This document shows positions 2,828-53,653 of a stretch of 53,703 bases of DNA, one piece after another (positions within the stretch are counted from its first letter, which is position 1; each line of letters starts with the position of its first letter). Both the position numbers and the translations under genes were made by a program. Location of the stretch: the UHGV virus genome UHGV-0137934, one strand, 5' to 3'. The notes under the pieces were generated by a model. It searched no databases and was not told the DNA's origin. It saw only the letters and a list, made by a program, of their open reading frames with translations. The stretch is from a virus.

Positions 2828-3379
2828 TCATCCCGTTACTGGCAGATATTTATAGATAGTCTTCACCCCTACACCTATCACATCGGCTATCTGCTGGCGT
2901 GTAGCTCCGTTCTCCAGCATCCGGCGGCCTCGTTCCACAACTTCTTCGGTCATAACCCGGCGGCGGCCACCGATGCGCCCCTGCTCCCTTGCCGCTGCTA
3001 AACCGGCGCGGGTACGCTCGACGATCAACTCTCTTTCCATTTCCGCCAGTGCACTCATGACGTGGAAGAAAAAACGTCCTGCTGGCGTACTGGTATCGAT
3101 GCTGTCAGTCAGGCTTCGGAAATTCACCCCGCGCGCCTGCAGCTCTGATACCAGAGTGATCAGGTCACGCACGCTTCGCCCCAGCCGATCCAGTTTCCAG
3201 ACCACCAGCACATCACCCGGTCGCAGCCGCCGCAGCGCACGCTTTAGCCCTGGTCTCCGGGCATTCTTTCCGCTGGCCGTATCTTCGAAAACCAGCTCAC
3301 ATTCTGCGCGGATCAGCGCATTTTTCTGTAAATCGAGGTTTTGATCCCCGGTTGACACCCTGGCATAACCAATCAGCAT
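2828..3379 (-). CDS. serine recombinase, Hin/Gin/Pin/Cin-family DNA invertase
   Basis: 183 aa; N-terminal MLIGYARVSTGDQNLDLQ catalytic-serine motif, C-terminal HTH; adjacent to tail-fibre genes as in Mu Gin and P1 Cin. Confidence 0.9.
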   Translation of the reverse strand: MLIGYARVSTGDQNLDLQKNALIRAECELVFEDTASGKNARRPGLKRALRRLRPGDVLVVWKLDRLGRSVRDLITLVSELQARGVNFRSLTDSIDTSTPAGRFFFHVMSALAEMERELIVERTRAGLAAAREQGRIGGRRRVMTEEVVERGRRMLENGATRQQIADVIGVGVKTIYKYLPVTG

Positions 3380-3422: not shown

Positions 3423-3473
3423 TTCGCTCAAACCCTCGTTTGCGCGAAGCCTCTTTTTGGAGCAAAAAACATG
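3423..3473. repeat. left inverted repeat of invertible segment; contains 26-bp hix/gix-like crossover site (3423-3448, core CT 3435-3436)
   Basis: TTCGCTCAAACC-CT-CGTTTGCGCGAA imperfect palindrome; 49/51 nt identical to reverse complement of 9980-10030; includes RBS and ATG of gene at 3471. Confidence 0.75.
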
Positions 3474-5426
3474 GCTGCAGATCTGAATCCGCCGCTGGGT
3501 ACGACGACGCCTGAAATCTTTTTAGATAACGTTAAGCGGGCCGATCGGTTAGTGAACGGGCCGGAGGAAACGGTAAACGATCGCGGCGGGGAACCGCTGG
3601 ATACCTGGCGTCAGATGATGGCGAAAAATGATGATGTCAGGCAGAACATCATTCCGCTGAGTCGCCAGTACATGACGCTTGATACGGCCCAGGCCGATAT
3701 CGTCAATATCCCGGAGGGCAGCACAACCTATGTGCGCAGTTCTGATGATGCTTATCTGGCTATTGAGTACAAAAACACTGGAGGCGTGCTGCAACCTACA
3801 GGAAGAACCATGATTTCAGGAAAGACTGCCGTAAGACGTACAGATGAATACTCTGACGGAGTTAATTATGCCTGGGGAAAGGTTATGTCCAGCGGGGAAA
3901 TACTTCCGGGTACTCTTCAGGGAATGGACGGATTGCCAGCGCCTGAAAACGTCGCAGCATACGCTGCCAAAGGTGTGGCGGTCTATCAGCTTAATCCCGC
4001 AGATATTCCGGCAGGACATGCGATTATCAAAGACGGCATTGTTTTGCTGGAAGCTGACCAGTCAGGGCGCCTTAATTACCTGCCACCGCTCAATCGTCGC
4101 GCGCGGCAGTCGGTGAATCAACGCCCTGAAATGGTCCTCACGCCGCTACCCGCATCAGTACGCGCGGCAGTCGAACCACTCGCCGAGCGTGCCTGTAAAT
4201 ACATGCTTTCAACGTGGGTGCCGACATGGGTTCCCCTGGCTGGCGGAACCGGGCTTCCAGCCACTGGCTCGACGATGGACAGCATAGAGCAATACCCGCT
4301 GATGCTGGCCGCAGTAGTTCACTGGATAAGCTGGTGTGATGCCGGTTACGCGGCCTGGGATGAAACGTTTATTGGCGTCAGTTATGACACTGCCGTTTCC
4401 TGGATTGTTCAGGGGCTGGATTTAGTGGTAAGTGCGCATCTGGCAAACGGTGGTTGGTGGGGAGGCCCGCCGCCGCCGTGGAGCGAAGCCTCTGAAGAAG
4501 TGGCGGTAACTTTCGGCTCACAGGCGGCAGAGCTGGCGCGTAATGTGGCCAGCCACTGCGACCTGATGGGCGCACACCTGACGGCAGCCCAGAAAACAAA
4601 AGTCACCGCAATGGTGGTGCATGAGGCTAACCGCTTTGTGAAGTACACGCCCAAATACCGCTGGACGCGCCCGGATATCCGGGGGCAGGTGACGGATAAC
4701 TACCCGACAGGCGATTCCAAATCAGAAGAAATCGCCTGGAACCTGGCTATCCTCGCCCGTGCACTGATTTTAGCCCCGGATAATGCCAATGCTGAGCGCT
4801 GGGCCGAGCGGCTGATTACGATGCAGATTGCGGCGCTGGGTGACAGAAACGACCTGTCCGAGACGATGACGATTAACGGGCTGGCTCCCTGCGATGTGAT
4901 GAACGGGACAAACGTTAACCCGACCCGCCTCGTTGAAAACCACGGGGTTGCTGATGGGCAGGATGTGTCCCGCTGGTACACGATGGCGTCATTGTCAGGT
5001 AGCGAGTGGATGTTTCGCACCTTCCTGCTGGCCGGGAAGCCAGTGCCATCGGCAGCCCTCTGGCATATGGCCGACACCATGCGGGCGCTGGCCTACAACC
5101 CGGATGGTTCGGTGTGGAGCATGGACTGGAGGGAGCCTGTCGGCGAACTGTCCTATGCACCGGCGATTGCCTACATGTTTGCCGAGCCGCGTCAGGACTA
5201 TATCGATACGCTGTTGCACCGCCTGGCGATTTTTGCCGGGCAGCAGGACGACACTACCGGGGCGCTGCCCGCCGGGGCGTTTAACTGGCCAGTCTATGGT
5301 TCTTCCCAGCCCGGCGAATTCCTGAGTTACATCCGTATGTCTGACCGCATGCAAAACCCGCTGACCTGTCCGCGTGCCACCAATACACATTACACCAGCC
5401 TTGCCGCTATTTACCGGAGCGTTTAA
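3471..5426 (+). CDS. receptor-binding tail fibre/tailspike protein, cassette A (currently in non-expressed orientation)
   Basis: 651 aa; N-terminal about 50 aa homologous to N-terminus of ORF 6320..9982; divergent C-terminal domain; lies inside invertible segment. Confidence 0.7.
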   Translation: MAADLNPPLGTTTPEIFLDNVKRADRLVNGPEETVNDRGGEPLDTWRQMMAKNDDVRQNIIPLSRQYMTLDTAQADIVNIPEGSTTYVRSSDDAYLAIEYKNTGGVLQPTGRTMISGKTAVRRTDEYSDGVNYAWGKVMSSGEILPGTLQGMDGLPAPENVAAYAAKGVAVYQLNPADIPAGHAIIKDGIVLLEADQSGRLNYLPPLNRRARQSVNQRPEMVLTPLPASVRAAVEPLAERACKYMLSTWVPTWVPLAGGTGLPATGSTMDSIEQYPLMLAAVVHWISWCDAGYAAWDETFIGVSYDTAVSWIVQGLDLVVSAHLANGGWWGGPPPPWSEASEEVAVTFGSQAAELARNVASHCDLMGAHLTAAQKTKVTAMVVHEANRFVKYTPKYRWTRPDIRGQVTDNYPTGDSKSEEIAWNLAILARALILAPDNANAERWAERLITMQIAALGDRNDLSETMTINGLAPCDVMNGTNVNPTRLVENHGVADGQDVSRWYTMASLSGSEWMFRTFLLAGKPVPSAALWHMADTMRALAYNPDGSVWSMDWREPVGELSYAPAIAYMFAEPRQDYIDTLLHRLAIFAGQQDDTTGALPAGAFNWPVYGSSQPGEFLSYIRMSDRMQNPLTCPRATNTHYTSLAAIYRSV

Positions 5427-29762: not shown

Positions 29763-30060
29763 CCACTTACCAGAAATAGAAAGATGTTAGACACATCTTC
29801 TGACCAATAAAATTATAAACCTAAGGGATTTCGACCAAATCATTTTCATAACTTCGCGTTAGCTAACAATTTCTTTGTCTGAACACGCTGCAAATTAAAA
29901 GGCTTAACTAGTTTGCATAGGCTGGAGTGTCGCGATTATTTACAGTGCTTTAGTAAATCGCTATGATTTACGGACTGGGGAGGCCTGAGACTCACCCCAG
30001 TGCCCTTAAAATCTGATTGATGCTTTTGAGGTCCGCTTCCCGAAGTGGACCTTTTTTTGC

Positions 30061-30088
30061 CCAAAGAAAAGGCCCGCCGAAGCGAGCC
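30061..30088 (-). terminator. intrinsic terminator (minus strand)
   Basis: Minus-strand hairpin GGCTCGC-TTCG-GCGGGCC followed by TTTTCTTT. Confidence 0.5.
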
Positions 30089-30119
30089 TGCCACTGCTGT
30101 TTCTTTGTTTGTATTGGTT

Positions 30120-30253
30120 GTGGTGCCGGGTGCCTCCCGGTGAGCTTTTGGGTGACCGACCATAGCTCGCGTTCATTAGCTTCTAACTCTGCTGACGTTA
30201 CCGTGCCACATTGTCTGGTCAGTTCCGCCCCGCCGCACAGGGGGATTCACCAC
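30120..30253. repeat. structured element A (134 nt) with conserved termini GTGGTGCCGGGTGCCTCCCGGTGAGC ... GGGGGATTCACCAC
   Basis: Paralogue of 31142-31253; termini can pair (GTGGTG/CACCAC); internal CCGGG...CCCGG hairpin; ERIC-like end motif. Confidence 0.35.
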
Positions 30254-30324
30254 GCACTTTAATTAACCAACCATTTAGACTCATGTCAATTATTTGTGTT
30301 CTATGCATCAACGTAGATAATCCG

Positions 30325-30971: not shown

Positions 30972-31141
30972 GAAAAAGTTGGCTTTCGAGGAGTAACGAT
31001 AAAGAAAGGTTCCTGATAGTCCGAGCTACCGATTTACCAGAAAAGCATTCCCTTTAATGTCGTTACTGTAATTAACCATAGTCTGCCAAAGAGGATGAGT
31101 AAACCTAACAGGATGTTCAGTTTACTTACTTGCGATTAGAT

Positions 31142-31253
31142 GTGGTGCCGGGTGCCTCCCGGTGAGCATGCCCCAACAGACATCACTCGCGTGGTATTCA
31201 CAGGGCTTTCGCTCTATTAGTTGGACGCCCCTCCGCATAGGGGGATTCACCAC
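31142..31253. repeat. structured element B (112 nt), paralogue of element A
   Basis: Identical 26-nt 5' end and near-identical 3' end to element A; variable middle. Confidence 0.35.
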
Positions 31254-31508
31254 AACAATAGATTAGCCATGCAGCATTCACATAGTCAATACCCTGTAGT
31301 TATAGGGTATATACGCATGCCGACAACTCTTAAATAAGTCAGAACACGATTAATTAATGCATATGAAATCATTACGGTATTAATGATAAAAACTCATACA
31401 AAACAATAAATTTAAAAGGAATTATCCGTTAGGATTTTTCCTACGCCAATCGCAAACTACGTTTTATAAAAACAAGAATGTCCATACTCTTTCCAGAGGT
31501 TAACTCAC

Positions 31509-33791: not shown

Positions 33792-34841
33792 CTAACTCAG
33801 CAAACTGCGCATTTCACTGACCGTCTGTTCAAACCGCTCGGTTTCCAGTTCAACGCCGATTCCACTCCGCCCAAGCAGAGCCGCTTGCTTTAGTGTGGAA
33901 CCCGAACCAGCAAAGAAATCAGCTACGACATCCCCTGGCCGACTGCTTGCAGTAATGATCTGCTGGAGCATATCGGCAGGTTTTTCGCATGGGTGCTTAC
34001 CTGGATAAAACTGAACCGGCTTATGTGTCCAGACGTCGGTATATGGCACCGTGACCGACACGCTAAATGGGCGCCGTAACCGGTAAAGCTCCTGCTGAAG
34101 TTCAGAATACTTCCGGTTAAGTGATTGCCAGGTAGCGACAAGCTGGTGGTGAGGTTTTCCCAGTTCGTTGCGTGAGTGCTTATCCATGGCGATTTTTTGA
34201 AACAGAGCCTGCAACTTCAAATAATCGGCTTCATTCGGCAGTTGCCACTGGCTAAGGCCAAACCAGTGGGAAACCATATTTTTTTTACCCGTGGCTTCTG
34301 CAATCTGGGCCGACGTCACGCCAAGAGATTCCCGGGCATCCCGGAAGTAAGAAATTAAAGGCGTCATGATGTGTTGCTTTAACTCATTACACTTTGCGGC
34401 ATATCCATCGTCTTTGGGCCTGTATGGCCCCTGATAATGGTCGGCAAAAATGATACGCTCAGTGGCCGGGAAATAAGCGCGTAAGCTCTCCTTATTGCAG
34501 CCGTTCCATCGCCCTGATGGCTTAGCCCAGATGATATGGTTGAGCAGGTTAAACCGCTCTCTCACCAACAGCTCAATATCCGCTGCCAGGCGGTGCCCAC
34601 AGAACAGATACATGCTGCCGGCAGGTTTTAACACTCGCCAGAACTGTGCCAGACAGCTATCCAGCCAACGTAAATAGTCCTCGTCCCCCTGCCATTGGTT
34701 ATCCCAGCCGTTTGGCTTCACCTTAAAATAAGGCGGATCGGTAACAATAAGATCAATGGAGTTATCGGGTAGTGATGGGAGGTATTGCAGGCAATCAGCA
34801 TTGATTAATTCAACACTGGATATTTTTACAGTATTTTTCAT
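33792..34841 (-). CDS. DNA methyltransferase, N6-adenine/N4-cytosine type (DPPY motif)
   Basis: 349 aa; IVTDPPYF motif; C-terminal SAM-binding FFAGSGST. Confidence 0.8.
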   Translation of the reverse strand: MKNTVKISSVELINADCLQYLPSLPDNSIDLIVTDPPYFKVKPNGWDNQWQGDEDYLRWLDSCLAQFWRVLKPAGSMYLFCGHRLAADIELLVRERFNLLNHIIWAKPSGRWNGCNKESLRAYFPATERIIFADHYQGPYRPKDDGYAAKCNELKQHIMTPLISYFRDARESLGVTSAQIAEATGKKNMVSHWFGLSQWQLPNEADYLKLQALFQKIAMDKHSRNELGKPHHQLVATWQSLNRKYSELQQELYRLRRPFSVSVTVPYTDVWTHKPVQFYPGKHPCEKPADMLQQIITASSRPGDVVADFFAGSGSTLKQAALLGRSGIGVELETERFEQTVSEMRSLLS

Positions 34842-38636: not shown

Positions 38637-39109
38637 TCTGCCTCCAGCACTATCTTCAACTCAAACGGAACATCTCCTCCGCAATAGCAGAGCGGGCCAA
38701 GGTCAGACATAAGGCTCCACAGGGTCATTGACGTATAGCCATTTTCGTCTGTTACCGGGGGCGAAAAGTCCCCGAAGATCCCCGGGTGCTGGATTCGATT
38801 CTGCTCGTGTTGTTTTTCCAAATGTCTGAGGGAGACTTCATTGAGTTTCACTTTTACGATGCTGTTGAGATTGACCGATATTTCTCTGGCCAGCAGCGCA
38901 GGGGTGATACTGATACCGCGAGAAACCCCGCGGCTGATTGTGATAACACCCTTTTTCTCTAACGCCTTGAGGTGCGTTGCTGCTGCATTGGGGGACCGGC
39001 ACCCCAGCATGCCGGTCAGTTCGTAAGTTGTAGGCGGAAAACCATGTTTACGCTGATATTCGATCAGGAGGTCAAGGACCTCCTGCTGCCTTAAGGTCAA
39101 GGAAGTCAT
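38633..39109 (-). CDS. LexA-type winged-HTH DNA-binding domain protein lacking S24 peptidase domain
   Basis: About 158 aa; N-terminus LTLRQQEVLDLL ... GFPPTTYEL ... NAAATHLKALEKKGVI matches LexA DNA-binding domain; C-terminus unrelated to LexA. Confidence 0.6.
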   Translation of the reverse strand: MTSLTLRQQEVLDLLIEYQRKHGFPPTTYELTGMLGCRSPNAAATHLKALEKKGVITISRGVSRGISITPALLAREISVNLNSIVKVKLNEVSLRHLEKQHEQNRIQHPGIFGDFSPPVTDENGYTSMTLWSLMSDLGPLCYCGGDVPFELKIVLEAE

Positions 39110-41193
39110 GCTGCCTGCTCCTCTCTGTTCACGCACATTTCGGGTAAGTTAGCGCGTACCAGCGCTTCGGCGAACGGCGGCGGGACGGCATTGCCACAGC
39201 GCGCGACCTGCTTATCTTTCGCGTATTTCACGCCGCGGTAATCCTGGTCAATGATGTACCACTCGGGGAAGCCCTGCGCCCGGTAAAGTTCGTGTGGCTG
39301 CAGCATGCGCATGCCGATATCAACGATGCGGTAAGTCACTCCGTCGATTTCCACCAGCCCGGTGCATTCCTCTCCGCAGTATTCCTGCAGGAACGACAGT
39401 ACCTGCTGCGCTCGCTCTTCATCATAGTCCTCTGCCGCCAGAGTCGTTTTAACCTCCCCTACGTGCTGGCCACCGGCAGTGATAGTCGGCATCGGCTCGT
39501 CAGTAGGCTGGCCGTCACGGCAAGTACCGCGGAGCTTGACCAGATGAGACGTAACCATTGCGGCATCAGCCTTTGTCGTCATGGTTTGCAGTGGCTCGCT
39601 AACGTCACGTGGCCTGCTCTGCCCAGCGCGACCGCCGACACCAACAACCTGAGCAGTAACCAGCGCATGATGATCGACAGTAGTAACTGAGTGAGTAGGT
39701 TCGTCCAGGTCAATACCGGCGCCCTGGTAGTTCCCTCCGTAGTGTTTTGCCAGAAACGCACCAACTACGGCATGTTTCCCGCCACCAGCCACAACGGTGC
39801 CCAGCGGCTTATCCATACCTGGCACGCGAGGTGCCTGTCCTGGCCGTTCCCCGTATCCCGTTTGAATGAGCGTCGGCACAACCAGCTGCGATTTACCGCC
39901 ACCGCCCGCGGTGATTGTTGCGCTAGGCTCATCCGCACGGTGTCCGATGCTGGCGCCGAACTGCCGGGCGATAACCGGAGCGACGACACAGGCGCGCGAT
40001 TCTTTCAGGATGGTGTGAGCGGGTTTATCGAGCGGGCGTGGTTTAGCCTGGTACTCGCTGCCGCCATTGCCATCCAGGAACGGAGCCAGCTCTGCTTCAA
40101 CAATACCCATAGCGTGACCATTCCCGCCCGGGCGTTTTGCGGTACCGGCCGTCACCGTCGGCAACGGATCGGTGACTTCCTGACCGGTAGCTCCGGTTCG
40201 GAATTTTGTCAGATGAGGTACCGCAATTGCGTAGCCGTGGGTTTTCGTAATCGTCTGTAGCGGATCGTCCAGCGCCTGTCCCCGGAAACAGTCGTATTTA
40301 CCGCGTGTCGTTGTGTGATTGCACTTCACGATGAACGGCGAAGCGCTTTCGATAACAAAGCGCTGAATGCCGCGGGCAATCCGTTTTAGCGTATTCTCTG
40401 CCAGTGACTTTTTGCGACCGAAGATGCTCGGCGCGGGGATTGACCAGTCTATGCATTCCGCTGCTGTACGCCACGGCTCCAGCTGGCCCGCCAGCACGGC
40501 GGCAGACTTCGGATCCCCGTGCGTGGCTTCCGGCCAGACTATCGGTTTCCCGTCCCGGCGCATCACCATGAAGAACCGCTTACGGATGGTCGGCGCACCA
40601 TAATCGCAGGCGCGCAGCTCGCGAAAATCGACGACATAACCCAGCCCGGCAATTAAGCGCTTGGCCTGCTCGCTATCCGGTGAAAACTCCAGAAACTCGC
40701 AACACTCCACCAGTGCAGGATGATCTGCTGGAATACCGGTGGTAAGCATCCCGACAAATGCATTGAAAGTTTCACCGATGCGTGCCGGATCCGGTCGCAT
40801 TTCTGCCGCGAGTAACGGGCCCCACGTTTTAAACTCTTCGACGTTTTCCAGCATCATGACTCGCGGGCCAACATCCAGCGCCCAACGAATGACGATCCAT
40901 GCCAGCCCTCGAATAGTTTTCTCTACTGGTTTAGCACCTTTCGCTTTAGAAAAGTGACGACAGTCAGGCGAGAACCATGCCAGGCCGACAGGCTTGCCAC
41001 TGGTAGCGGCTAATGGGGATACATCAAACACACTTTCGCAATAGTGAAGCGTGTCGGGATGGTTAGTGCGGTGCATAGCAACGGCGTTAACATCGTGGTT
41101 AATCGCGATATCAACGCTACGCCCTATCGCCAGCTCAATACCTGTACTGGCACCACCGCCACCAGCAAAATTATCGACAATAATCTCACGCAT
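39106..41193 (-). CDS. DNA (cytosine-5) methyltransferase, long form with repeated target-recognition-like segments (probably multispecific)
   Basis: 695 aa; motif I FAGGGG, motif IV SPDCRHFSKAKG, motif VI ENV, C-terminal CGNAVPPP; central region with repeated P.xTITAGG-type segments. Confidence 0.8.
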   Translation of the reverse strand: MREIIVDNFAGGGGASTGIELAIGRSVDIAINHDVNAVAMHRTNHPDTLHYCESVFDVSPLAATSGKPVGLAWFSPDCRHFSKAKGAKPVEKTIRGLAWIVIRWALDVGPRVMMLENVEEFKTWGPLLAAEMRPDPARIGETFNAFVGMLTTGIPADHPALVECCEFLEFSPDSEQAKRLIAGLGYVVDFRELRACDYGAPTIRKRFFMVMRRDGKPIVWPEATHGDPKSAAVLAGQLEPWRTAAECIDWSIPAPSIFGRKKSLAENTLKRIARGIQRFVIESASPFIVKCNHTTTRGKYDCFRGQALDDPLQTITKTHGYAIAVPHLTKFRTGATGQEVTDPLPTVTAGTAKRPGGNGHAMGIVEAELAPFLDGNGGSEYQAKPRPLDKPAHTILKESRACVVAPVIARQFGASIGHRADEPSATITAGGGGKSQLVVPTLIQTGYGERPGQAPRVPGMDKPLGTVVAGGGKHAVVGAFLAKHYGGNYQGAGIDLDEPTHSVTTVDHHALVTAQVVGVGGRAGQSRPRDVSEPLQTMTTKADAAMVTSHLVKLRGTCRDGQPTDEPMPTITAGGQHVGEVKTTLAAEDYDEERAQQVLSFLQEYCGEECTGLVEIDGVTYRIVDIGMRMLQPHELYRAQGFPEWYIIDQDYRGVKYAKDKQVARCGNAVPPPFAEALVRANLPEMCVNREEQAA

Positions 41194-42139
41194 GAGCGGT
41201 CCCCCTCATGCTGCCGACCAGCCCACCAGCAACGGTGATGATTTCGCTGGTGGGCACGCGCTCCAGCCACAACTGGTTAATGTGGGCCTTCAGCTTGTTC
41301 TGCTGGGAGAACTCCAGATCCTCTGCGCCTTGTACCTGTCCAAAGACGAGTCCAACTTCCAGTGGCCAGATCCGGGATTCAGGCTCAGCCAATGATGCAA
41401 CAGCATCGGGGATGATCACTTCAGGAGACTGAACTGGCGAAACTGGTGACAGGAATTTTCCTGCAGCAAACTCAGCCAGCGCCATACTTGCGCGCCCTTT
41501 TGCTTCCAGCTCAACGCGATCGATATAGCTAAAATGTTCACCGCGCCAGGTCTTATCAAATACCGCAATGGCCCCGGCAAAGAAGGCGCTGGTGGGCTTC
41601 TGCTTTTCGTCGGCCGGCACAAACCACGTTGGGAGATCGAATCCAATACGACCACGAATAAACATGATGTGATCGGCATATTCCGGCCACCATGTTTCAC
41701 TTGTTGCTGACTTCACGAGGTAAATGTAACGACCACCCTTTTCACGCTGCTCGGCGGTATAGTTCATAATATGAGTCATGCCAGTGATGGCTTGTTTTTC
41801 ATGGTACTGCGAACGGCTGTACGGCGGATTAGCAAAGGCCGCTCCTCCGAGTTCTACCAAACGACCAGACCAGTCCTGCGTCAGCGCATTATCTTCAGCG
41901 GTATACCATGCCGGACATTTTGTATTGCTGTCGTCTGCAAACAGGTCCAGTACCAGCGGGCCAAACATAGCGTTAACGCCCCAGAATAGCAGATCAGGGG
42001 TACGCCATTGATCCCCGACTTCTTTTAAATAATGCGCACTACGCTGGCGCTGTTCCTCAAGTGCCAGGCAATAAGGGCTGACTGTTTTTGTTAAAGTTTG
42101 CTCTTCTGCGGTCATAGCTTCTTGTACTTCCTGACTCAT
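41186..42139 (-). CDS. phage Dam-type N6-adenine DNA methyltransferase with C-terminal extension
   Basis: 317 aa; DLFADDSNTKCPAWYT and FANPPYS motifs. Confidence 0.7.
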   Translation of the reverse strand: MSQEVQEAMTAEEQTLTKTVSPYCLALEEQRQRSAHYLKEVGDQWRTPDLLFWGVNAMFGPLVLDLFADDSNTKCPAWYTAEDNALTQDWSGRLVELGGAAFANPPYSRSQYHEKQAITGMTHIMNYTAEQREKGGRYIYLVKSATSETWWPEYADHIMFIRGRIGFDLPTWFVPADEKQKPTSAFFAGAIAVFDKTWRGEHFSYIDRVELEAKGRASMALAEFAAGKFLSPVSPVQSPEVIIPDAVASLAEPESRIWPLEVGLVFGQVQGAEDLEFSQQNKLKAHINQLWLERVPTSEIITVAGGLVGSMRGTAHA

Positions 42140-44025: not shown

Positions 44026-44577
44026 TTATTTCTCCATACACAAAGATTTATTCGCCACGACGCCCGGAGCTGCACACTCGCGGGCGTCACTCTTTTCTGA
44101 CTGGCAAAAGACACGGAAAAGCAATGTCAAATGCTCCTGCCATTTCGCCATCACCTGATAACTGTTCTCCTCGATCTGCTCTCGTTCTGCCTGGTCAATA
44201 ACACCGTCAGCTGTAGCTTTACGGAGATACTGTGAGTGCTTTCCGATCCACTCGATAGACTCCATCAGGCGCTGGTTGATATCGGCGTTATCAACGTCCT
44301 CAATATCTGCCAGCGGCACAAAAACCCCGTTCGAATGGCGGGCTATCGCATTGGCTATATGATTCGAACCACCAGCGCGCTGCAGAACCATTGCCCAGCC
44401 TAGAGGGAAAATCTGATCTCCATCGGCACGTAAGCGGTTAAACAATGCGTTTTCAGTAACACCCAGCCATTCAGCTGCTTCTGCATACCCACCGTCCAAA
44501 TCAGTGATCGTTTTTTTGATCGCAGCCACCAGCCAAGCCGGCTGCTTATCAATTTTCCATTCAGGTTCTATACCCAC
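44026..44577 (-). CDS. cII-like/YdaT-like regulatory protein
   Basis: 183 aa; follows cro-like gene as ydaS-ydaT pairs do. Confidence 0.45.
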   Translation of the reverse strand: MGIEPEWKIDKQPAWLVAAIKKTITDLDGGYAEAAEWLGVTENALFNRLRADGDQIFPLGWAMVLQRAGGSNHIANAIARHSNGVFVPLADIEDVDNADINQRLMESIEWIGKHSQYLRKATADGVIDQAEREQIEENSYQVMAKWQEHLTLLFRVFCQSEKSDARECAAPGVVANKSLCMEK

Positions 44578-44909: not shown

Positions 44910-45584
44910 ATGAAAACAATCCAGGAAATCAGGCGGTTAAACGCCAGAAAATTGCGTGATGGTGTTGGCGGTAATATTTACTTCGCCAATATGATTGATC
45001 GCGAGCCGACTCAAACCAGCCGGTTCATGGGAGATGGCGCCACTAAAAACATCGGCGATGCAATGGCAAGGCACATTGAAAAGTGTTTTGACTTACCTAC
45101 TGGGTGGTTAGATCAGGAACATCAAACCACTAATGTTGCTAAAACTCCCGATGTCTCTGATACAAATAGAAATATCACCATGGTTCCGGTTATATCCTGG
45201 GTACAAGCAGGAGCATGGACCGAAGTTGGCTATGCTGAGGTTGATTTGAATAGCACTGAAAACTATCCATGCCCTGTTCCTTGTGGGCCGATGACTTATA
45301 TTCTTCGTGTTATTGGCGACTCAATGATCGACGAATATAGGCCCGGTGATATGATTTTTGTTGATCCCGAAGTTCCAGCAGTACATGGAGATGATGTGAT
45401 CGCCTTAATGCACGATTCTGGTGAGACTACATTTAAACGGTTGATTGAAGATGCAGGACAACGCTATCTAAAAGCACTTAACTCAAACTGGCCAGAACCT
45501 TACATCAAAATCAATGGTAATTGCTCTATCATTGGTACCATAATTTTTTCCGGTAAACCAAGACGATACCGAACGAAAACATAA
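44910..45584 (+). CDS. CI-type repressor (HTH plus S24 LexA-like peptidase)
   Basis: 224 aa; C-terminal VIGDSM ... ETTFKRL motif of S24 autoproteases. Confidence 0.85.
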   Translation: MKTIQEIRRLNARKLRDGVGGNIYFANMIDREPTQTSRFMGDGATKNIGDAMARHIEKCFDLPTGWLDQEHQTTNVAKTPDVSDTNRNITMVPVISWVQAGAWTEVGYAEVDLNSTENYPCPVPCGPMTYILRVIGDSMIDEYRPGDMIFVDPEVPAVHGDDVIALMHDSGETTFKRLIEDAGQRYLKALNSNWPEPYIKINGNCSIIGTIIFSGKPRRYRTKT

Positions 45585-45623: not shown

Positions 45624-45656
45624 TTGACAATGTACCTCAACGGTACATAATGTACC
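45624..45656 (+). promoter_or_regulatory. P_L-like promoter overlapped by two operator palindromes
   Basis: TTGACA-N16-CATAAT; TGTACC-N5-GGTACA (45631-45647) and GGTACA-TAA-TGTACC (45642-45656). Confidence 0.6.
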
Positions 45657-45757: not shown

Positions 45758-45991
45758 ATGGCAAGCAAAGGCATTGAAAACCTTATCAAGGACGCATTAG
45801 CAAACGGCTGTCATGTAGTCCGTAAAGCGCATCGCTTCGAGGTAAGCAAGAAAGGCCAAAAATCAATCACTCTTATTATTTGTGAAGATGGCACAGCTTA
45901 CCGGGGAGATATTGACCTAACGATCGCCATAGCCATTCGCACTCAAAAAGAAATGCGCAGCATCCTCGGCCTGCCGGCCAAGGCAAGTTAA
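45758..45991 (+). CDS. hypothetical 77 aa protein, first ORF of P_L-like operon
   Basis: ORF with AGGA RBS; not arginine-rich like N; weak HicA-like resemblance only. Confidence 0.45.
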   Translation: MASKGIENLIKDALANGCHVVRKAHRFEVSKKGQKSITLIICEDGTAYRGDIDLTIAIAIRTQKEMRSILGLPAKAS

Positions 45992-45999
45992 TTACCACA

Positions 46000-47109
46000 G
46001 GTATCTTCGGGAGGGGTTGCGGAGCTGGATTGACCACCAGCAACAGAAACTCACCCGACATACAGCAGCCGTTTAGCCCACGGCGTCGGGGGTCCAGTAG
46101 ACCTGGATTAATACTGTAGGGGTTATGCCGGTTGGTCGCCGGCGCCCCGCCCGAAGATACCTGATCGAACATGGCGAAAGCCGACAGCGTTGAAGGCGAT
46201 TTTCTCGGTTTGCGCGCTAAACAATAGCGGGGGTGAAATCGGGGCGGAGAAGCAGAATCCGCGATGTCGGGACTTGATACTTCCGGCCAGACCAATAAGC
46301 CGAATGATCGCGTAACGGTCCTTTGCATCTGCCCCGGCGAGGTGGCGCCGCCGGACCGGGGTAGATGAATCGTACACAACATGAAAGCGCATTCCATCTT
46401 CATCCGTCGTGGGGACTGGTTTGTAACTGAAGGAGTGCGCTTCCAGTTGTGAACGGCAATATTCACGACCGTTGTATGGCACATGCAGCGTTAGCAGCCC
46501 GGATGGTTCCCTTGAAGTTCCATGCGCTATCCGGACAACTGGAATGTGCAAGCCAAGTGTTTCAGGCACGACGTGCGCCCCACCAGCGCGGCGAAAAGGT
46601 GTGACGCCCGGGAAGAGTCCGGGACACAACGATGAGGGCATTGACGAGCAAGGCACAGAGTCTGGTTCGATTCCAGACGCCAGGATAGTTCTATATCTGG
46701 TGATGGGCAGGGAAAAGGTCCGTTCGATTCGGACACCGGCAGTGCTCTCTTCGTTGTGGTAATTGCGGCTATGCGCACGTGACGAGCCAAACCCGTTCAA
46801 TGAATGCGTTTCCGGGCAGTGTACGTCGCCGGTTATGGCTTAACCCGGCAGGTGGAGGCACCACCGCCACAACCTAGTTAACTGTGCTGTGTGTAGTCTT
46901 GGCGGTTATCCAGTTTTCCACTATCCAAAGGAGGAAGAGGATAACGTTCTGATGGATAACCGCCCTTTTTACACAATACACAAGAGCATCACCGGGTGAC
47001 GGGCTCATTACCCAATCCACCCGGGCGGCGTCCTAACCGCAGGTGCTCTTCTGTGTTGTGTACGGAGAAATTCCCGGCGGTGGCAGCCGCCTTTCGAGAG
47101 GGTAAAACC
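46000..47109 (+). other. GC-rich structured non-coding region (candidate large ncRNA or cis-regulatory RNA)
   Basis: No credible ORF; multiple long inverted repeats and twin T-loop-like hairpins (see findings). Confidence 0.35.
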
Positions 47110-47481
47110 ATGAGTAATGATCGCATGACAGTAGTGCCCGATTTCCTGGGTGAACTGGACGCCGGCGTGTTCATGAACAAGATTGCGGCGGCTCTTAATA
47201 CCACCGCGCTCGGCGTTCTGAACAACGGCAACAAAGGCAAGGTTGTCCTCACCTTTGATTTTGAGCGTATGGGCAACTCTGTTGAAGAGAAGCGCGTCAA
47301 GATTAAGCACAAGCTGAACTACAGCACCCCAACTCCCCGCGGCAAAGCGTCGGAAGAGGACACCACCGAAACACCAATGTGGGTTAACAAAGGCGGCAAG
47401 CTCACTATCCTGCAGGAGGATCAGGGGCAACTCTTCGGTATCACCGGCACGGTGGACGGAAAGCTTAAAGCGGCTCAGTGA
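47110..47481 (+). CDS. YfdP-like hypothetical protein
   Basis: About 124 aa from ATG 47110 (GAGGG RBS); ORF track start at 46996 is unlikely. Confidence 0.5.
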   Translation: MSNDRMTVVPDFLGELDAGVFMNKIAAALNTTALGVLNNGNKGKVVLTFDFERMGNSVEEKRVKIKHKLNYSTPTPRGKASEEDTTETPMWVNKGGKLTILQEDQGQLFGITGTVDGKLKAAQ

Positions 47482-48365: not shown

Positions 48366-48494
48366 TTGCTCTCCATTAAATCCCCGGCGCCGCGGGGATT
48401 TATTAAAGCGTAATCCTGCAAATAATCGCCACCTGGCGAGGGATTCCTACACCCAAAAAACAGCGCTGTGCAGGCGTAAAGTATGGAGAAAAAA

Positions 48495-49022
48495 ATGAGC
48501 TTTATTCAAACCTTTTCAGGCAAACATTTTAACTATCTCGACATCCAGCAAGACGCCATCGAGATCGAAGATATTGCTAATGCACTCTCGAACATCTGCC
48601 GCTTTGCCGGTCACCTGCCTGAGTTCTATAGCGTCGGCCAGCACAGCGTTTTAACAAGCCAACTGGTACCTCAGGAATTTGCGCTTGAAGCGCTGCTGCA
48701 TGACGCCGCCGAGGCATATTTGCAGGATATCCCTGCCCCATTGAAACGCCTTCTTCCTGACTACCGAGCCATTGAAGATCAGGTTGATGCAGCTATTCGC
48801 CAAAAATTCGGCCTGCCGGCTGAGCAGCACCCGACCGTTAAATATGCCGACCTGGTGATGCTGGCCAGCGAACGTCGCGACTTTGAGATCGACGACGGCA
48901 CCCATTGGACGATGCTCGACGGCGTCATTCCTACCGACCAATTTGTGATTAATCCCGTCCGCCCTGGTCAATCTTACGGCATGTTCATGAACCGCTTTAA
49001 CCAACTGATGGAGCGGCGCTAA
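48495..49022 (+). CDS. HD-domain 5'-deoxynucleotidase, YfdR-like
   Basis: About 175 aa; H...HD metal-binding pattern (GQHSVL ... LLHDAAEAY ... D). Confidence 0.6.
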   Translation: MSFIQTFSGKHFNYLDIQQDAIEIEDIANALSNICRFAGHLPEFYSVGQHSVLTSQLVPQEFALEALLHDAAEAYLQDIPAPLKRLLPDYRAIEDQVDAAIRQKFGLPAEQHPTVKYADLVMLASERRDFEIDDGTHWTMLDGVIPTDQFVINPVRPGQSYGMFMNRFNQLMERR

Positions 49023-49225
49023 TGGCACACGTGAAAGTGAAAGAATTGGTTGCTGCAGCGTACGCTGCGGCACCTGACCTACCACCAGCAGCAGCAGCCC
49101 AATTAATGCAAGACATAGCGTCAAGGCTGGATGTGACCTTTGTCGCCCTTACAGAGGCAATGGACCAGAACACCGCTATGGCCGCGATGATAGCGAACCT
49201 GAGCGAGGAAAACAGAAATGGCTAA
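49022..49225 (+). CDS. hypothetical small protein
   Basis: 67 aa Ala-rich ORF overlapping neighbours. Confidence 0.35.
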   Translation: MAHVKVKELVAAAYAAAPDLPPAAAAQLMQDIASRLDVTFVALTEAMDQNTAMAAMIANLSEENRNG

Positions 49226-50006
49226 AAACTCGATCGATGCTTATGGCGCCAGCGGCAAGACAAACGTTCTGATGTTCGAGCCGGAAAATCTGCATATTGT
49301 CACTGACAAGGCTCACCCGCTTTACGATGAACGTATTCACTTACCTCTCAGTGAAGCCATGGTGCTGAACATCATAGACCAGGGTGTTCTGGAGCCGATT
49401 ATTGTCTGGAAAGACCCGGAAACTGGGTACTCCTGCGTGGTTGATGGCCGTCAGCGTGTCCGTCATACCCTGGAGGCTAACAGACGCCTGGCCAAAGAGG
49501 GTAAAACTCCGCTACTGGTTCCGGCTGTCACTAAACGCGGTTCTGCTGTTCGCATGGCTCAGGCAATGGTCAGCGCAAACGAAATCCGCCAGGCCGACAC
49601 ACCGCTGGGCAGGGCCAAAAAGATGGCTGATGCGCTGGAGCGCGGGCATGACGAGGAAGACCTAGCGCTGATGTTCGGCGTCAGTGTCCCCACTGTACGC
49701 GCTACGCTATCCCTTCTGGATGCCACTCAGGCAGTCAAAGACGCGGTAGAGTCCGGCGCAGTGACCGTTACCCAGGCACGGCAACTGGCATCACTGAAAC
49801 CCGAAGAACAGCGGGAAAAGGTAGCCGAAATCGAAGCGGCGACCGCTGGCACTACCGGTCATGAAAAAGCGCGTCGTCAGCGCCAGGTCCTCGGCGATAA
49901 GAAACCGCGCCTTAAAACTCGCAAAGAAATCACAAAAGCCCTCGAAGCTGCCAACGGTGAATACGCTGATGCTCTGCGCTGGGTACTTGGGGAGGTAACA
50001 TTATGA
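49218..50006 (+). CDS. ParB/Srx-fold (ParB N-terminal domain-like) protein
   Basis: 262 aa; VLEPIIVWKDPETGYSCVVDGRQRVRH matches ParB-N/sulfiredoxin arginine finger region. Confidence 0.6.
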   Translation: MAKNSIDAYGASGKTNVLMFEPENLHIVTDKAHPLYDERIHLPLSEAMVLNIIDQGVLEPIIVWKDPETGYSCVVDGRQRVRHTLEANRRLAKEGKTPLLVPAVTKRGSAVRMAQAMVSANEIRQADTPLGRAKKMADALERGHDEEDLALMFGVSVPTVRATLSLLDATQAVKDAVESGAVTVTQARQLASLKPEEQREKVAEIEAATAGTTGHEKARRQRQVLGDKKPRLKTRKEITKALEAANGEYADALRWVLGEVTL

Positions 50007-51082
50007 GTAAAGTAGGAGATCATTTCTTTGAGTTTCCTGCATCACGTGGAACTCAGGGCGGTTCAATTGTCCTGATGCTAACTGTTCCTGCACGGACCCT
50101 TACGCGAGTTCTCGCCAGCGATAATTACGGGGACACTCTTGAACGCTCGCAGCGAGAACTGAACCCAGCCAGGGCGAAAAAGTTTTATCAGTATCTTGTT
50201 GAAGCATACGAAAACAAAGAGCCATTTATCATTCCACCGCTGGTAGGTAACTGCGATTCGTATGTTGAATTCGAAGAGTTCGGAAACACTAATGTCGGGG
50301 TGGCCCGATTCCCGATGGACGCAGAGATTAAATTGTTTGATGGTCAGCATCGCGCAGCAGGTATTGCGGAATATTGTCGCACCATTGATGAACCGATCCA
50401 TGTCCCGATGATGCTTACTCTCCAGTTGCCACTGAAGACACGGCAGCAGTTTTTCTCCGACATTAACAACAATGTTTCGAAACCTTCTGCGGCTATCAAT
50501 ATGGCCTATAACGGTCGTGATAAGAACGCGCAGGAGATGGTTAGTTTTATCAGTTCACACAGCGTATTTTCTGAAGTCACCGATTTTGAGCATAACGTCG
50601 TTCCCGCGAAAAGTGATAAGTGGGTGAGCTTCAAAGCCCTTAGTGATGCTACTGCAAAATTTTCCGGTTCATGTTCACAAGATGACCTTGAGGGGTTGTG
50701 GAATGCCTGGCTGATGCTGACTGGTTTAGATGATATTCGCCGAGGTACGAACCAGGTCGAGTACAAACGCGAGTATATCCAGTTCCATGCTGTGATGATT
50801 AACGCCTTTGGCTACGCCGTGCAGAGGTTAAGCGAAGGTCGGGGAGTTCGCGGGGTCACGCTGATGATTGAGGACTTGGTAATGAATACCGGCATTGCCG
50901 AACGTGAAGATTTCTTCCTCCTTTCATCATGGGATGGTATTTGCGCCAGCTGCGAGAAAACAAGGCCAACGGTCATTGCGAATGTCTCATCTCAGAAAGC
51001 TGCAGCATCACGCCTGATGGATGCCATCGCGAATAAAAACTTGTCTGTCAGTAGCGGTAAGGAATCAGCCAATGACCAATAA
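50003..51082 (+). CDS. DGQHR-domain protein (DndB-like)
   Basis: 359 aa; exact DGQHR motif at residues 113-117 (nt 50339-50353); ATGA overlap with upstream ParB-like gene. Confidence 0.65.
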   Translation: MSKVGDHFFEFPASRGTQGGSIVLMLTVPARTLTRVLASDNYGDTLERSQRELNPARAKKFYQYLVEAYENKEPFIIPPLVGNCDSYVEFEEFGNTNVGVARFPMDAEIKLFDGQHRAAGIAEYCRTIDEPIHVPMMLTLQLPLKTRQQFFSDINNNVSKPSAAINMAYNGRDKNAQEMVSFISSHSVFSEVTDFEHNVVPAKSDKWVSFKALSDATAKFSGSCSQDDLEGLWNAWLMLTGLDDIRRGTNQVEYKREYIQFHAVMINAFGYAVQRLSEGRGVRGVTLMIEDLVMNTGIAEREDFFLLSSWDGICASCEKTRPTVIANVSSQKAAASRLMDAIANKNLSVSSGKESANDQ

Positions 51083-51740
51083 CCAGTTAACCAGAGAACG
51101 TCTGGAAAAAATTAAATCATGGCGTGACACCTACGGTGCCGGAAGCAACGTAATGCTGCCAGCTGAAGAGGCTGAGGAGCTGGCTCGCATCGCGCTGGCC
51201 GTAATAGACAGCGAGCCGGTCCGCAACCCTGTGCTGGCGTATGCCGACAGTTATCGTGATATGGCGAAACAAGGCGTCAAGTCAGTCCCAATATGGAGCG
51301 TCATTACCGACCTAGAGCGAAACATAGCGCCGCTCTATATCCACGCGCAGCAGCCGGTAGTGCCGGAGGAAAAGCCAATGCCTAATCCGCTGAGCATGTA
51401 CGCCGTTGATGCTGTAGCGGCTATAGCAGAGGTGAAAGGCTGGAACGCCTGCCGCGCCGCCATGCTCCAGGCTGGCAACTCTCCGGTAATTCCGGATGGT
51501 TACATGATGGTGCCGATGAGGCTAACCGCTGAGAACGGTGCAAAAGCAGCGCTTCTCGGGGAATTCAATCTTGAATATACGCTGACATGCCATGAGTGTT
51601 TTGGTGAAGGGTGCGACGACTGCTGCGGCGAGGGAACCTGGACGAGCACCATGCCGATTGACTGGACTACCATCAAAGAAATCTGGGATAAGGCCATTAA
51701 TCACTTCGCAGCCGCCCAGCGGGAGGTGAAAAGTGAGTAA
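51072..51740 (+). CDS. hypothetical protein with C-terminal Cys cluster (CHECFGEGCDDCCGEG)
   Basis: About 222 aa from ATG 51072 with AAGGA RBS. Confidence 0.45.
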   Translation: MTNNQLTRERLEKIKSWRDTYGAGSNVMLPAEEAEELARIALAVIDSEPVRNPVLAYADSYRDMAKQGVKSVPIWSVITDLERNIAPLYIHAQQPVVPEEKPMPNPLSMYAVDAVAAIAEVKGWNACRAAMLQAGNSPVIPDGYMMVPMRLTAENGAKAALLGEFNLEYTLTCHECFGEGCDDCCGEGTWTSTMPIDWTTIKEIWDKAINHFAAAQREVKSE

Positions 51741-51966
51741 AGCCGAATTATTTCAAAGGCTTAAGGCTCTTACTACAGATTTTCATACTCTGGCATGTGA
51801 GCTTGATATCGGTGACAAGCGCACAGAAGTTTTCGAAATTTACGAAGTTCTGCGCCGGGCTCAGCGTCGCGGTGCAGCTGGTGAAATGTTGGCTGCAACT
51901 AATCCGCTGCTTAGTCCTGGCATTCCTGATGATATGGAATGGACGAATTTCGAAAACGAGGATTAA
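51733..51966 (+). CDS. hypothetical protein
   Basis: 77 aa ORF. Confidence 0.4.
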   Translation: MSKAELFQRLKALTTDFHTLACELDIGDKRTEVFEIYEVLRRAQRRGAAGEMLAATNPLLSPGIPDDMEWTNFENED

Positions 51967-51971
51967 GACTG

Positions 51972-52250
51972 ATGCCCAGCAAACTTAAACGCCGGCGTTG
52001 GCGCAGTATGCGTGAGGATCTAGCCTGGTATAAAGCAGAGGCAGATGACTGGAAAGCCATAGCCCTTGAACATGCAAACGAACTGTCAGTTCTTCGCAGA
52101 CATTCGCTTCATGTTCCGTTACCAGTGCTTATTCCTGTGGAAATTGTCCACCAACTAAATGCAAGTAAACATAAAGATCACCCGTTATGTAAAACCTGTA
52201 TTGACGGGCTACGCAGTGGTTGTTCGTCATGTGCTTATAATATTCGATAA
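51972..52250 (+). CDS. hypothetical basic protein with C-terminal Cys motifs
   Basis: 92 aa from ATG 51972. Confidence 0.4.
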   Translation: MPSKLKRRRWRSMREDLAWYKAEADDWKAIALEHANELSVLRRHSLHVPLPVLIPVEIVHQLNASKHKDHPLCKTCIDGLRSGCSSCAYNIR

Positions 52251-52278
52251 CCGGGTGCAGCCGGTGTATGGAGAAAAA

Positions 52279-52515
52279 ATGTCACGTATGGTCTCTTTAC
52301 TCGAATGGGCGAAAGATGAATTCGGTAGTGAAGCCCCTAGCGAGCGTGTATTAAAAAAATACGCTAAAGGTCAAATGATAGCGCCGCCACCGATGCGAGT
52401 TGGACGGCGCTGGATGGTTGACAGAGAAGCTCGTTTTATAGGTGTCGTTGCTGAACCTCAACTTCCAATAAATGTAAACCCAAAATTGAGACGGATAATT
52501 AACGATGGCAGCTAG
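52279..52515 (+). CDS. xis: excisionase (Xis-like)
   Basis: 78 aa from ATG 52279 (GGAGA RBS); overlaps int start; lambda Xis-like pattern. Confidence 0.65.
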   Translation: MSRMVSLLEWAKDEFGSEAPSERVLKKYAKGQMIAPPPMRVGRRWMVDREARFIGVVAEPQLPINVNPKLRRIINDGS

Positions 52516-53653
52516 ACCGCGCACTCATAAAATCTCTATCCCAAACCTGTATTGCAAGCTTGATAAACGCACCGGTAAGGTTTACTGGCAATACAAACAC
52601 CCTATTTCTGGGCGTTTTCATAGCCTCGGCACAGATGAAGCTGAGGCAAAGCAGGTGGCAAGTGAAGCAAACACGATCATTGCAGAGCAGCGAACCAGGC
52701 AGATCCTTAGTATTAACGAGCGTCTGTCGCGTATGAAAGGAAACCGCGCGGACATTACAGTGACAGCATGGCTTGATAAATATGAATCCGTGCAGGAGGA
52801 AAGGTTGAAACACAACGAACTTCGACCAAATTCTTTTAGGCAAAAAGCTAAACCTATCCGGCTTTTTCGTGAGCATTGCGGCATGCAATATCTGAAAGAC
52901 ATTTCAGCACTAGATATTTCTGAAATAACAGATGCGGTTAAGGCTGAGGGTCATAATAGAATGGCTCAAATTGTTCGCATGGTATTAATTGATGTATTTA
53001 AAGAGGCACAGCATGCTGGACATGTTCCGCCAGGTTATAACCCTGCCCAGGCTACTAAGCAACCTCGAAACAAAATTACTAGACAACGTTTATCACTGGA
53101 GGAATGGAAGACTATTTATGAATGCGCTGAGCATCAACAGCCATATTTGCAGTGCGGAATGCTACTCGCAATAGTAACCGGCCAGCGCATAGGTGATATT
53201 TGTAATATGAAATTCACAGATATTTGGGATGATATGTTACATATTGTGCAGGAAAAAACAGGTTCTCGCCTTGCCATTCCGCTCTCACTAAGAAATGAAG
53301 TACTAGATATTTCGCTACGAGATGTTGTTTCAAAATGTAGAGATGCGGTGGTTAGTAAATATCTGGTCCACTTCAGACATACCACCTCTCAGGCTAACCG
53401 TGGTGATCAAGTATCCACGAAAACTCTGACTTCTACATTTAAAAAAGCTCGGGACAAAAGTTGTCTTGCATGGGATGAAGGAAGCGCCCCAACCTTCCAC
53501 GAACAGAGATCTCTTTCAGAACGGTTATACCGCGAGCAGGGCCTAGATACTCAGAAGTTACTGGGCCACAAATCGAAAAAAATGACGGATAAATACAACG
53601 ATGACCGGGGTAAAGACTGGCTCGTTGTAGGTCAGAAAGCAATACGATTTTAA
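52505..53653 (+). CDS. int: tyrosine integrase, lambda Int family
   Basis: 382 aa; closely resembles remembered lambda Int (LAIVTGQRIGD, PTFHE.RSLS.RLY, LLGHKS..M...Y). Confidence 0.9.
   Translation: MAARPRTHKISIPNLYCKLDKRTGKVYWQYKHPISGRFHSLGTDEAEAKQVASEANTIIAEQRTRQILSINERLSRMKGNRADITVTAWLDKYESVQEERLKHNELRPNSFRQKAKPIRLFREHCGMQYLKDISALDISEITDAVKAEGHNRMAQIVRMVLIDVFKEAQHAGHVPPGYNPAQATKQPRNKITRQRLSLEEWKTIYECAEHQQPYLQCGMLLAIVTGQRIGDICNMKFTDIWDDMLHIVQEKTGSRLAIPLSLRNEVLDISLRDVVSKCRDAVVSKYLVHFRHTTSQANRGDQVSTKTLTSTFKKARDKSCLAWDEGSAPTFHEQRSLSERLYREQGLDTQKLLGHKSKKMTDKYNDDRGKDWLVVGQKAIRF

Follow-up and report, generated by a model that had tools for sequence, protein, structure and literature searches.

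An orphan ParB-like gene and a stand-alone DGQHR gene are separate cassettes in the early-left region of a Klebsiella-type lambdoid prophage

The early-left region of UHGV virus genome UHGV-0137934, a stretch of 53,703 nucleotides (nt) called the window below, carries two adjacent open reading frames (ORFs), of which gene 1 codes for an orphan ParB-like protein and gene 2 for a stand-alone, DndB-like protein with a DGQHR domain. A preliminary description had read them as a translationally coupled pair that could form a two-component, nuclease-like defence or anti-defence module. We find instead that the two genes are separate, swappable single-gene cassettes whose adjacency is an accident of a mosaic operon, and the ParB–DGQHR pair as a unit is not a new system. 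Our full interpretation, to which we assign a probability of about 50%, is that the cassettes are separate and that gene 2 encodes an orphan DNA binder, gated by a nucleoside triphosphate (NTP), with a role in early establishment. The DGQHR domain itself is already known and named in databases; no published study was found on the function of the clade borne by mobile elements.

Both ORFs and their ATGA start/stop overlap were confirmed in the sequence (Table 1). The overlap had been offered as evidence for a pair, but it is not diagnostic because it is one of six consecutive operon junctions, between positions 49022 and 51966, that all overlap (by 1, 8, 4, 11, 8 and 28 nt). Gene neighbourhoods were surveyed in 83 DGQHR loci, comprising 80 viral contigs and 3 annotated E. 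coli or Klebsiella-phage records, with ParB scored over a span of ~6 kb by a hidden Markov model (HMM) built on the ParB types seen upstream of DGQHR genes. A ParB gene lies upstream in 49 of the 83, and none is found within ~6 kb in the remaining 34. The reverse test, with the 80 closest relatives of gene 1 (at least 89% identity), found a DGQHR gene in 21 and its absence, despite room for one, in 57. The two genes are therefore not conserved as a unit. ParB is not listed among the 25 commonest Pfam families of the 77 non-redundant immediate neighbours of ParB-less DGQHR loci. In the DGQHR branch 70–74% identical to gene 2, the gene comes after a recombination module consisting of RecT plus a YqaJ exonuclease, or of Erf, sometimes with a small helix-turn-helix (HTH) protein. 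In the clade at least 89% identical to gene 2, some ParB-like gene is nearly always upstream, and the simplest reading is that ParB is a regular operon resident in that phage group and DGQHR an optional cassette behind it.

The borders of shared sequence between the window and individual loci (Table 1) point the same way, in that homology breaks exactly at gene borders and each ORF thus behaves as a single-gene cassette. The segment that replaces the DGQHR ORF in L086 is 2.7 kb long and consists of small ORFs and an IS256-family transposase. In L099, a stub of 66 amino acids (aa; L099 5783–5983) with a DGQHR-protein-like start (MSIVGDYFFEFPASRGVQGWW...) stands directly behind ParB and looks like a deletion scar, the DGQHR gene having been lost in one lineage. 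The GC content of the DGQHR gene is 0.478, compared with 0.556 for the ParB gene and 0.547 for the next gene, and by tblastn 1,068 plasmid records carry the DGQHR protein but just 7 the ParB type of gene 1. In loci with a second ParB type (C3), a small ORF lies between ParB and DGQHR. When neighbours were clustered in the 83 viral and 27 proteobacterial genome loci and 77 of them scanned against Pfam, no universal partner gene of DGQHR was found. A 154-aa HTH-type neighbour was considered as a partner and set aside; its length is conserved in Xenorhabdus, but the protein there is not homologous.

The domain and fold assignments of the preliminary description held for both proteins. Gene 2 has the exact DGQHR motif and scores 194 bits against NCBIfam TIGR03187 (DGQHR domain; cutoff 58.85, E 4e-57) and 149.5 bits against Pfam DndB PF14072 (cutoff 29.1, E 1.7e-43), with further matches to PADLOC DndB (E 1.9e-35) and to PHROG 7901, of unknown function (E 2.7e-194). 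Against the DndB equivalog TIGR03233 it reaches 100.8 bits with a cutoff of 328. Gene 2 belongs to the DGQHR domain family yet is not DndB proper. The family is compact: when its profile was run against 1.84 billion representative proteins, the clusters (50% identity) numbered 799 at E <= 0.001, with 72 reaching E <= 1e-30. A ParB/sulfiredoxin-type NTPase-like domain, in which all conserved core residues are kept, takes up the N-terminal ~280 aa, and the C-terminal part is helical. In an alignment of 21 sequences reaching down to 29% identity, R48, Q50, R51, D113, Q115 and R117 are invariant, as are R147, F151, D153, N155, Y169 and K211. Every one of these residues falls in the N-terminal domain, and the same alignment has no invariant polar or catalytic residue in the C-terminal half. 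An HEPN-like R-x5-H (YKREYIQFH) in the latter was rejected as a catalytic motif because R256 is replaced by K or A in some members and distant ones lack H262. Pfam and PADLOC searches found no nuclease or other second domain in gene 2, including HNH/DUF1524 and PD-(D/E)xK. The AlphaFold2 model (mean predicted local distance difference test score, pLDDT, 72) has an N-terminal ParB/sulfiredoxin-type fold. A PDB sequence search with the family profile gave nothing significant, with FliG at E 0.23.

In gene 1, an N-terminal ParB/sulfiredoxin-type domain is followed by a ParB HTH domain, and the C-terminal tail is short. Its designation as ParB-like is upheld by matches to Pfam HTH_ParB (44.9 bits, cutoff 22.6), to PHROG 1033 'ParB-like partition protein' (E 3e-74) and, among PDB sequences, to Spo0J (1vz0), Noc (7ng0) and ParB (7bnk) at E 1e-6 to 1e-4. 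The stretch DGRQRVRH aligns with the ParB GERRxRA box (GERRYRAAL in Spo0J); in the resulting Box II, GRQRVRH, G77 and R80 are conserved and the glutamate of GERR is replaced. G77 and R80 are also invariant when the three divergent ParB types that precede DGQHR genes are aligned. The score against TIGR00180 is 31.8 bits (cutoff 58.45), and the NCBIfam partition-ParB models are likewise below their cutoffs. No ParA ATPase is found next to gene 1, the neighbours being the YfdR-like HD protein, a 67-aa ORF and the DGQHR gene. Gene 1 is an independent orphan ParB-type protein with a predicted NTP-binding domain and an HTH, and it most likely serves as a DNA-binding switch akin to KorB, Noc or HerB and not as a partition protein. 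As a separate observation, in two ParB-only loci (L097 6169–7077 and L144 4312–5412) the gene after ParB has the PP-loop-like motifs SFSGGQTS and SGGKDS; judged from these motifs, the gene product is suggestive of a 3'-phosphoadenosine-5'-phosphosulfate (PAPS)-reductase/DndC-like enzyme, an arrangement that we take to recall ParB–PAPS reductase pairs of the IbrA/IbrB type.

The closest DGQHR protein to gene 2 is from K. oxytoca (97% identity), and full-length homologues with 57–97% identity occur across the Enterobacterales, all named merely 'DGQHR domain-containing protein'. Salmonella phages SPN1S, SPN9TCW and SPC32H (Uetakevirus) have the order RecT ... DUF1317–DGQHR–DNA methyltransferase–int, without ParB, and a plasmid-deposited record, which is non-mobilizable and contains an integrase and flanking chromosomal genes, has gam–bet–exo–DUF1317–DGQHR. 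The homologue in the 1,068 plasmid records, of which 883 are typed conjugative and 565 come from Klebsiella, is ~42% identical. On the IncL/M plasmid pCTXM360, ~7.5 kb separate the DGQHR gene from mobA/traI, the transfer genes being on the other side; the DGQHR gene shares its strand with ssb, Hha, an antirestriction gene, a JAB-domain gene, DUF1380 and DUF4942. With the origin of transfer (oriT) inferred from the position of the relaxase, this placement and orientation match a leading region read towards oriT. An IS1B insertion interrupts the DGQHR homologue of 63.6-kb IncL/M plasmids (L216, NZ_CP077782.1, 2989–5048; at least 10 listed plasmids); set beside the intact copy of pCTXM360, this is a natural knockout. 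In other DGQHR loci, ArdA, PsiA, Gam/Bet/Exo and several families of orphan methyltransferases are among the neighbours. Stand-alone DGQHR proteins have a second plasmid lineage, represented by an IncC plasmid (L214, NZ_MW540821.1, 7509–9128), whose orphan 539-aa protein, annotated 'DndB', has an N-terminal extension of ~160 aa and stands, without dndCDE, in an extended series of small hypothetical genes on one strand. In distant phyla, tandem pairs of DGQHR paralogues occur (e.g. 534 + 426 aa), an architecture that differs from the single gene of proteobacterial mobile elements; the metagenome-assembled genomes (MAGs) with such pairs are from Chloroflexota, Dehalococcoidia, Latescibacterota, Nitrospinota and Truepera. 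A full-text literature search on DGQHR found no functional study outside DndB and none on the stand-alone clade, in agreement with the preliminary description, which had called such proteins uncharacterised. The DGQHR ORF is unmentioned in the pCTX-M3 literature, and in the supplementary tables of Samuel & Burstein a DGQHR family has 7 members only and a ParB family ranks fifth by size.

The window is a lambdoid prophage of the Klebsiella type. Its top phage match is Klebsiella phage Kp4866-6, with 95% identity across about half of the 24.7-kb query (29000–53703). Genes 1 and 2 lie, as had been described, in an accessory region between the YfdR-like gene and xis/int. A candidate pL-type promoter with near-consensus TTGACA-16-CATAAT follows directly on the repressor gene, and between it and gene 1 the + strand has a single weak promoter-like site. 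Given this promoter layout, both genes are probably transcribed within a pL-type early-left operon.

The function that we propose for gene 2 draws on its relatives. DndB is an ATP-modulated DNA-binding repressor (PMC4507180; Xia 2019 as cited in PMC10164549). DpdB, which DpdA requires for the insertion of 7-deazaguanine into DNA, forms a dimer, has ATPase activity stimulated by DNA and carries a helical C-terminal domain (PMC10164549), and a DndB-like protein binds ATP and GTP (PMC12704722). Because these relatives behave in this way, the product of gene 2 is probably likewise a dimeric ParB/sulfiredoxin-fold protein, whose DGQHR site would bind and hydrolyse a purine NTP and whose NTP cycle would gate DNA binding via the helical C-terminal half. 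It would act alone, needing neither ParB nor dnd genes, and its genomic position suggests that it would do so early, on entry or induction. The location in a pL-type operon in the phage and on the leading side of oriT in IncL/M points to a role in early establishment, which could be regulatory reprogramming or protection of incoming DNA; from the same context we infer that gene 2 is likely to be expressed early. A wider and more tentative idea, which we regard as possible but hold to with well under even confidence, is that orphan DGQHR proteins are an unrecognised class of establishment factors of temperate phages and conjugative plasmids. Such NTP-gated DNA clamps or binders might keep host nucleases and translocating restriction complexes away from DNA that has newly entered, or might reprogram transcription in the host for a time, in parallel with HerB and its classical ParB fold.

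Several points weigh against this interpretation. NTP binding, DNA binding and dimerisation are all transferred from relatives whose identity does not exceed 27%, the quality of the gene 2 model is moderate at its pLDDT of 72, and the C-terminal half of the model has no convincing structural match. The leading-region placement was examined in detail for IncL/M alone, with oriT placed by mobA/traI, and the IS1-split gene of the 63.6-kb IncL/M plasmids implies that the protein is dispensable there. As for the separateness of the cassettes, ParB does lie upstream in more than half of the DGQHR loci, the pair is shared as a block by L007, and three ParB types with 20–25% mutual identity precede DGQHR genes that are ~90% identical; these facts leave room for a facultative interaction of the two proteins.

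An obligate, co-translated two-component module with a nuclease-like function in defence or anti-defence would account for the ATGA overlap, for the recurrence of ParB, in three divergent types, in 49 DGQHR loci, and for the exact two-gene block shared with L007, and it would be in keeping with the ParB/sulfiredoxin fold of both proteins, given that ParB dimerises via its NTP-binding domains. We consider it improbable, since the partner is absent from 34 of the 83 DGQHR loci and 57 of the 80 ParB loci, DGQHR stands without the partner in cultured Salmonella phages and on more than 1,000 plasmids, and only seven plasmid records contain this ParB type. The single-ORF cassette borders, the overlaps at every operon junction and the small ORF that intervenes in C3-type loci argue against it as well, and a nuclease domain was detected by Pfam and PADLOC in neither protein. 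Gene 2 could act by itself in a similar sense, as an exclusion or defence factor attacking competing DNA in the manner of Osa, a plasmid ParB/sulfiredoxin-fold ATPase/DNase, or of the NTPase half of GmrSD, SspE or DndI. This is also a poor candidate, with no nuclease domain detected and an unconserved C-terminal R-x5-H; no promoter of its own was detected for gene 2, so that its expression in a lysogen is not expected, and its PADLOC match is to DndB only, with no restriction component.

The suggestion that gene 2 counters phosphorothioate-dependent restriction, as a DndB mimic acting on Dnd or Ssp systems through the host dnd operon or through phosphorothioate-sensing nucleases, found no specific support and appears very improbable. 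DndB is indeed its closest characterised relative, and the gene lies in an early accessory region of the kind in which anti-restriction genes occur, with ArdA and orphan methyltransferases adjoining its relatives. Identity to DndB is however 27% and the match ends at residue 270, and the clade is widespread on broad-host plasmids and Enterobacterales prophages, whereas DNA matches to dndC/dndD occur in only 207 of 5,426 complete E. coli genomes and dndBCD in 568 of 31,478 genomes (PMC11662687). None of the nine DGQHR-carrying E. coli genomes is among the 60 listed of the 207 genomes matching dndC/dndD (147 are unlisted). Repression of the dnd modification genes alone would, moreover, leave incoming unmodified DNA exposed to DndFGH. 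Somewhat less improbable, though still unlikely, is that gene 2 is an NTPase helper that loads or stimulates orphan DNA methyltransferases as DpdB does for DpdA. A DNA methyltransferase gene lies directly 3' of DGQHR in SPN1S-type phages with a 4-nt overlap, methyltransferases are directly downstream in 10 of 83 loci and account for ~10 family matches among the 77 neighbours, the window prophage has three of them, and fusions of the ParB fold to methyltransferases are common in phages (PMC12704722). A methyltransferase nevertheless follows ParB-only loci at a similar rate (6/59), and adjacency is thus unspecific to DGQHR and seems to reflect the region. Most DGQHR loci lack an adjoining methyltransferase, and those of the window are 8–16 kb away on the other strand. 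The reading that we prefer remains that of two independent cassettes with gene 2 as an NTP-gated DNA binder.

Around these genes, the window ORFs scanned, which were part of the total, yielded no dnd, ssp or dpd gene, consistent with the earlier statement that no modification machinery is nearby. The right operon, on the - strand, contains DNA methyltransferases of the N6/N4, C5 and Dam types, the Q antiterminator and further early genes; no restriction partner for the three methyltransferases was found among the ORFs scanned. The gene following gene 2 has a positional homologue in E. coli L37 annotated DUF550, and a Pfam scan of its product gave no match. It varies among relatives, where the downstream neighbours of DGQHR genes fall into at least 18 clusters, and hence is not counted as a partner.

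Table 1. Positions of features in the window, and segments shared with other loci
Feature or locus	Position in window	Strand	Remarks
Gene 1, orphan ParB-like protein	49218–50006	+	262 aa
Box II (GxxRxxA-like) motif of gene 1	49437–49466	+	VVDGRQRVRH, residues 74–83
Start/stop overlap of genes 1 and 2	50003–50006	+	ATGA
Gene 2, stand-alone DGQHR-domain (DndB-like) protein	50003–51082	+	359 aa
DGQHR motif of gene 2	50339–50353	+	Residues D113–R117
Shared with L086	47000–49995, then 51059–53277		DGQHR ORF exactly replaced, both flanks kept
Shared with L024	50005–51080 only		DGQHR ORF alone, behind lambda-P-type replication gene
Shared with L093	49216–49994 only		ParB ORF alone
Shared with L099	49216–50059		ParB and 56-nt DGQHR stub
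Shared with L007	49218–51091		Both genes as one block, flanks differ
Tandem DGQHR pairs in L193, L194, L196, L197, L199, L201, L202, L206–L208			MAGs
HD-type YfdR-like gene	48483–49022		5' of gene 1; PHROG 318, E 7.5e-98
Gene downstream of gene 2	51072–51740	+	Start overlaps DGQHR stop by 11 nt; PHROG 60
Integrase	52505–53653		PHROG 7244, E 2e-111
CII-like gene	44026–44577	-	
CI-like repressor	44910–45584		
Candidate pL-type promoter	45624–45651	+	Directly past repressor gene
Weak promoter-like site	47384–47411	+	9/12 matches
77-aa ORF	45758–45991		Before GC-rich stretch; PHROG 12911
GC-rich stretch	45995–46990	+	~1 kb, no convincing ORF
N6_N4 DNA methyltransferase, orphan	33792–34841	-	
C5-cytosine DNA methyltransferase, orphan	39106–41193	-	695 aa
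Dam-like DNA methyltransferase, orphan	41186–42139	-	
STnc100 copies	30059–30282 and 31099–31282	-	RF02076
421-aa protein	653–1918	-	PHROG 1268 'DNA polymerase'
DNA invertase	2828–3379	-	Beside 421-aa protein
Tail-fibre gene	3471–5426	+	Beside 421-aa protein

Other parts of the window gave observations of their own. The GC-rich stretch downstream of the pL-type promoter folds more stably than shuffled sequences (z -3.7 for the + strand, -1.65 for the - strand), and sub-segments of ~80–250 nt recur separately in early-left intergenic gaps of dozens of prophage loci. Matches to them occur in 116 E. coli genomes, and the records listed have no feature annotated there. With 9 homologues of 46360–46650, RNAalifold gave an invariant long hairpin and two stems with compensatory changes, and an Rfam search of the stretch gave no match even at E <= 1. 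The stretch may consist of leader or antitermination RNA modules, or be an unannotated small RNA (sRNA). The two copies of the sRNA STnc100 within the prophage are ~1 kb apart, with scores of 97 and 70 bits (gathering score 47). At the left end, the arrangement of the invertase and tail-fibre genes suggests an invertible tail-fibre segment; the 421-aa protein beside them we take, unchecked, to be UmuC-like.

These results bear on how such gene pairs are to be judged. In mosaic phage operons, a start/stop overlap and adjacent related folds are weak evidence for a functional pair, and here the question is settled by reciprocal neighbourhood counts together with homology breakpoints. They also reveal a DGQHR family that is no longer tied to the dnd context and moves by itself on mobile elements, its carriers being Enterobacterales prophages, cultured Salmonella phages and more than 1,000 plasmid records, including IncL/M backbones. 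IncL/M backbones are linked to the spread of carbapenemase and extended-spectrum β-lactamase genes. The most useful lead is that the gene sits in early operons of phages and likewise in leading regions of plasmids. Should gene 2 prove to be an early establishment or anti-defence factor, it would add, after HerB, a second branch of the ParB superfamily to the early-expressed proteins of mobile elements and would offer a testable target for limiting the establishment of plasmids or phages.

Among known systems, gene 1 resembles HerB/YfjB, KorB and Noc in having an N-terminal ParB domain, predicted in gene 1 to bind NTP, and an HTH DNA-binding domain and in being borne by a mobile element, in an early-expressed region, with no ParA partner nearby. 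HerB/YfjB is a protein of the leading region that resembles ParB, binds CTP, has an HTH and reprograms host transcription (bioRxiv 10.64898/2026.07.07.736705). Its family is defined by four domains (D1–D4) over ~650 aa with at least 80% coverage, whereas gene 1, at 262 aa, is D1/D2-like only and lies outside the family because D3 and D4 are missing; unlike these three comparators, its sequence type is also essentially restricted to prophages.

Gene 2 compares most closely with DndB, which is likewise a DGQHR-domain protein of similar length (361 aa) matching PF14072. Over 284 columns (residues 6–270) gene 2 shares 27% identity with a genuine DndB of Salmonella encoded beside dndCDE, and the SQR, DGQHR and QQxFxDxN motifs of the two align. 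The C-terminal ~90 aa of gene 2 are unaligned, however, the gene lies in a phage early operon and not next to dndC, dndD or dndE (among the ORFs scanned), and its clade is carried by phages and plasmids whereas DndB is carried by dnd islands. The structural matches of the gene 2 model are largely those published for DpdB, which has the motif DGQQR in place of DGQHR (PMC10164549); no DpdB-type model is among the NCBIfam matches of gene 2, and no DpdA-like or tRNA-guanine transglycosylase-like gene among the window ORFs scanned. Proteins of the GmrSD/SspE/DndI type (DUF262 + DUF1524) have a C-terminal HNH, whereas Pfam finds in gene 2 the DndB domain only. The plasmid DGQHR protein WP_011091054 of pCTXM360 differs from gene 2 in its length of 427 aa, with a C-terminal extension of ~80 aa, and in having a small HTH gene upstream instead of ParB. 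It is otherwise alike, being ~42% identical over 94% of the protein, matching Pfam DndB end to end and standing alone in a same-strand run of small early-type genes.

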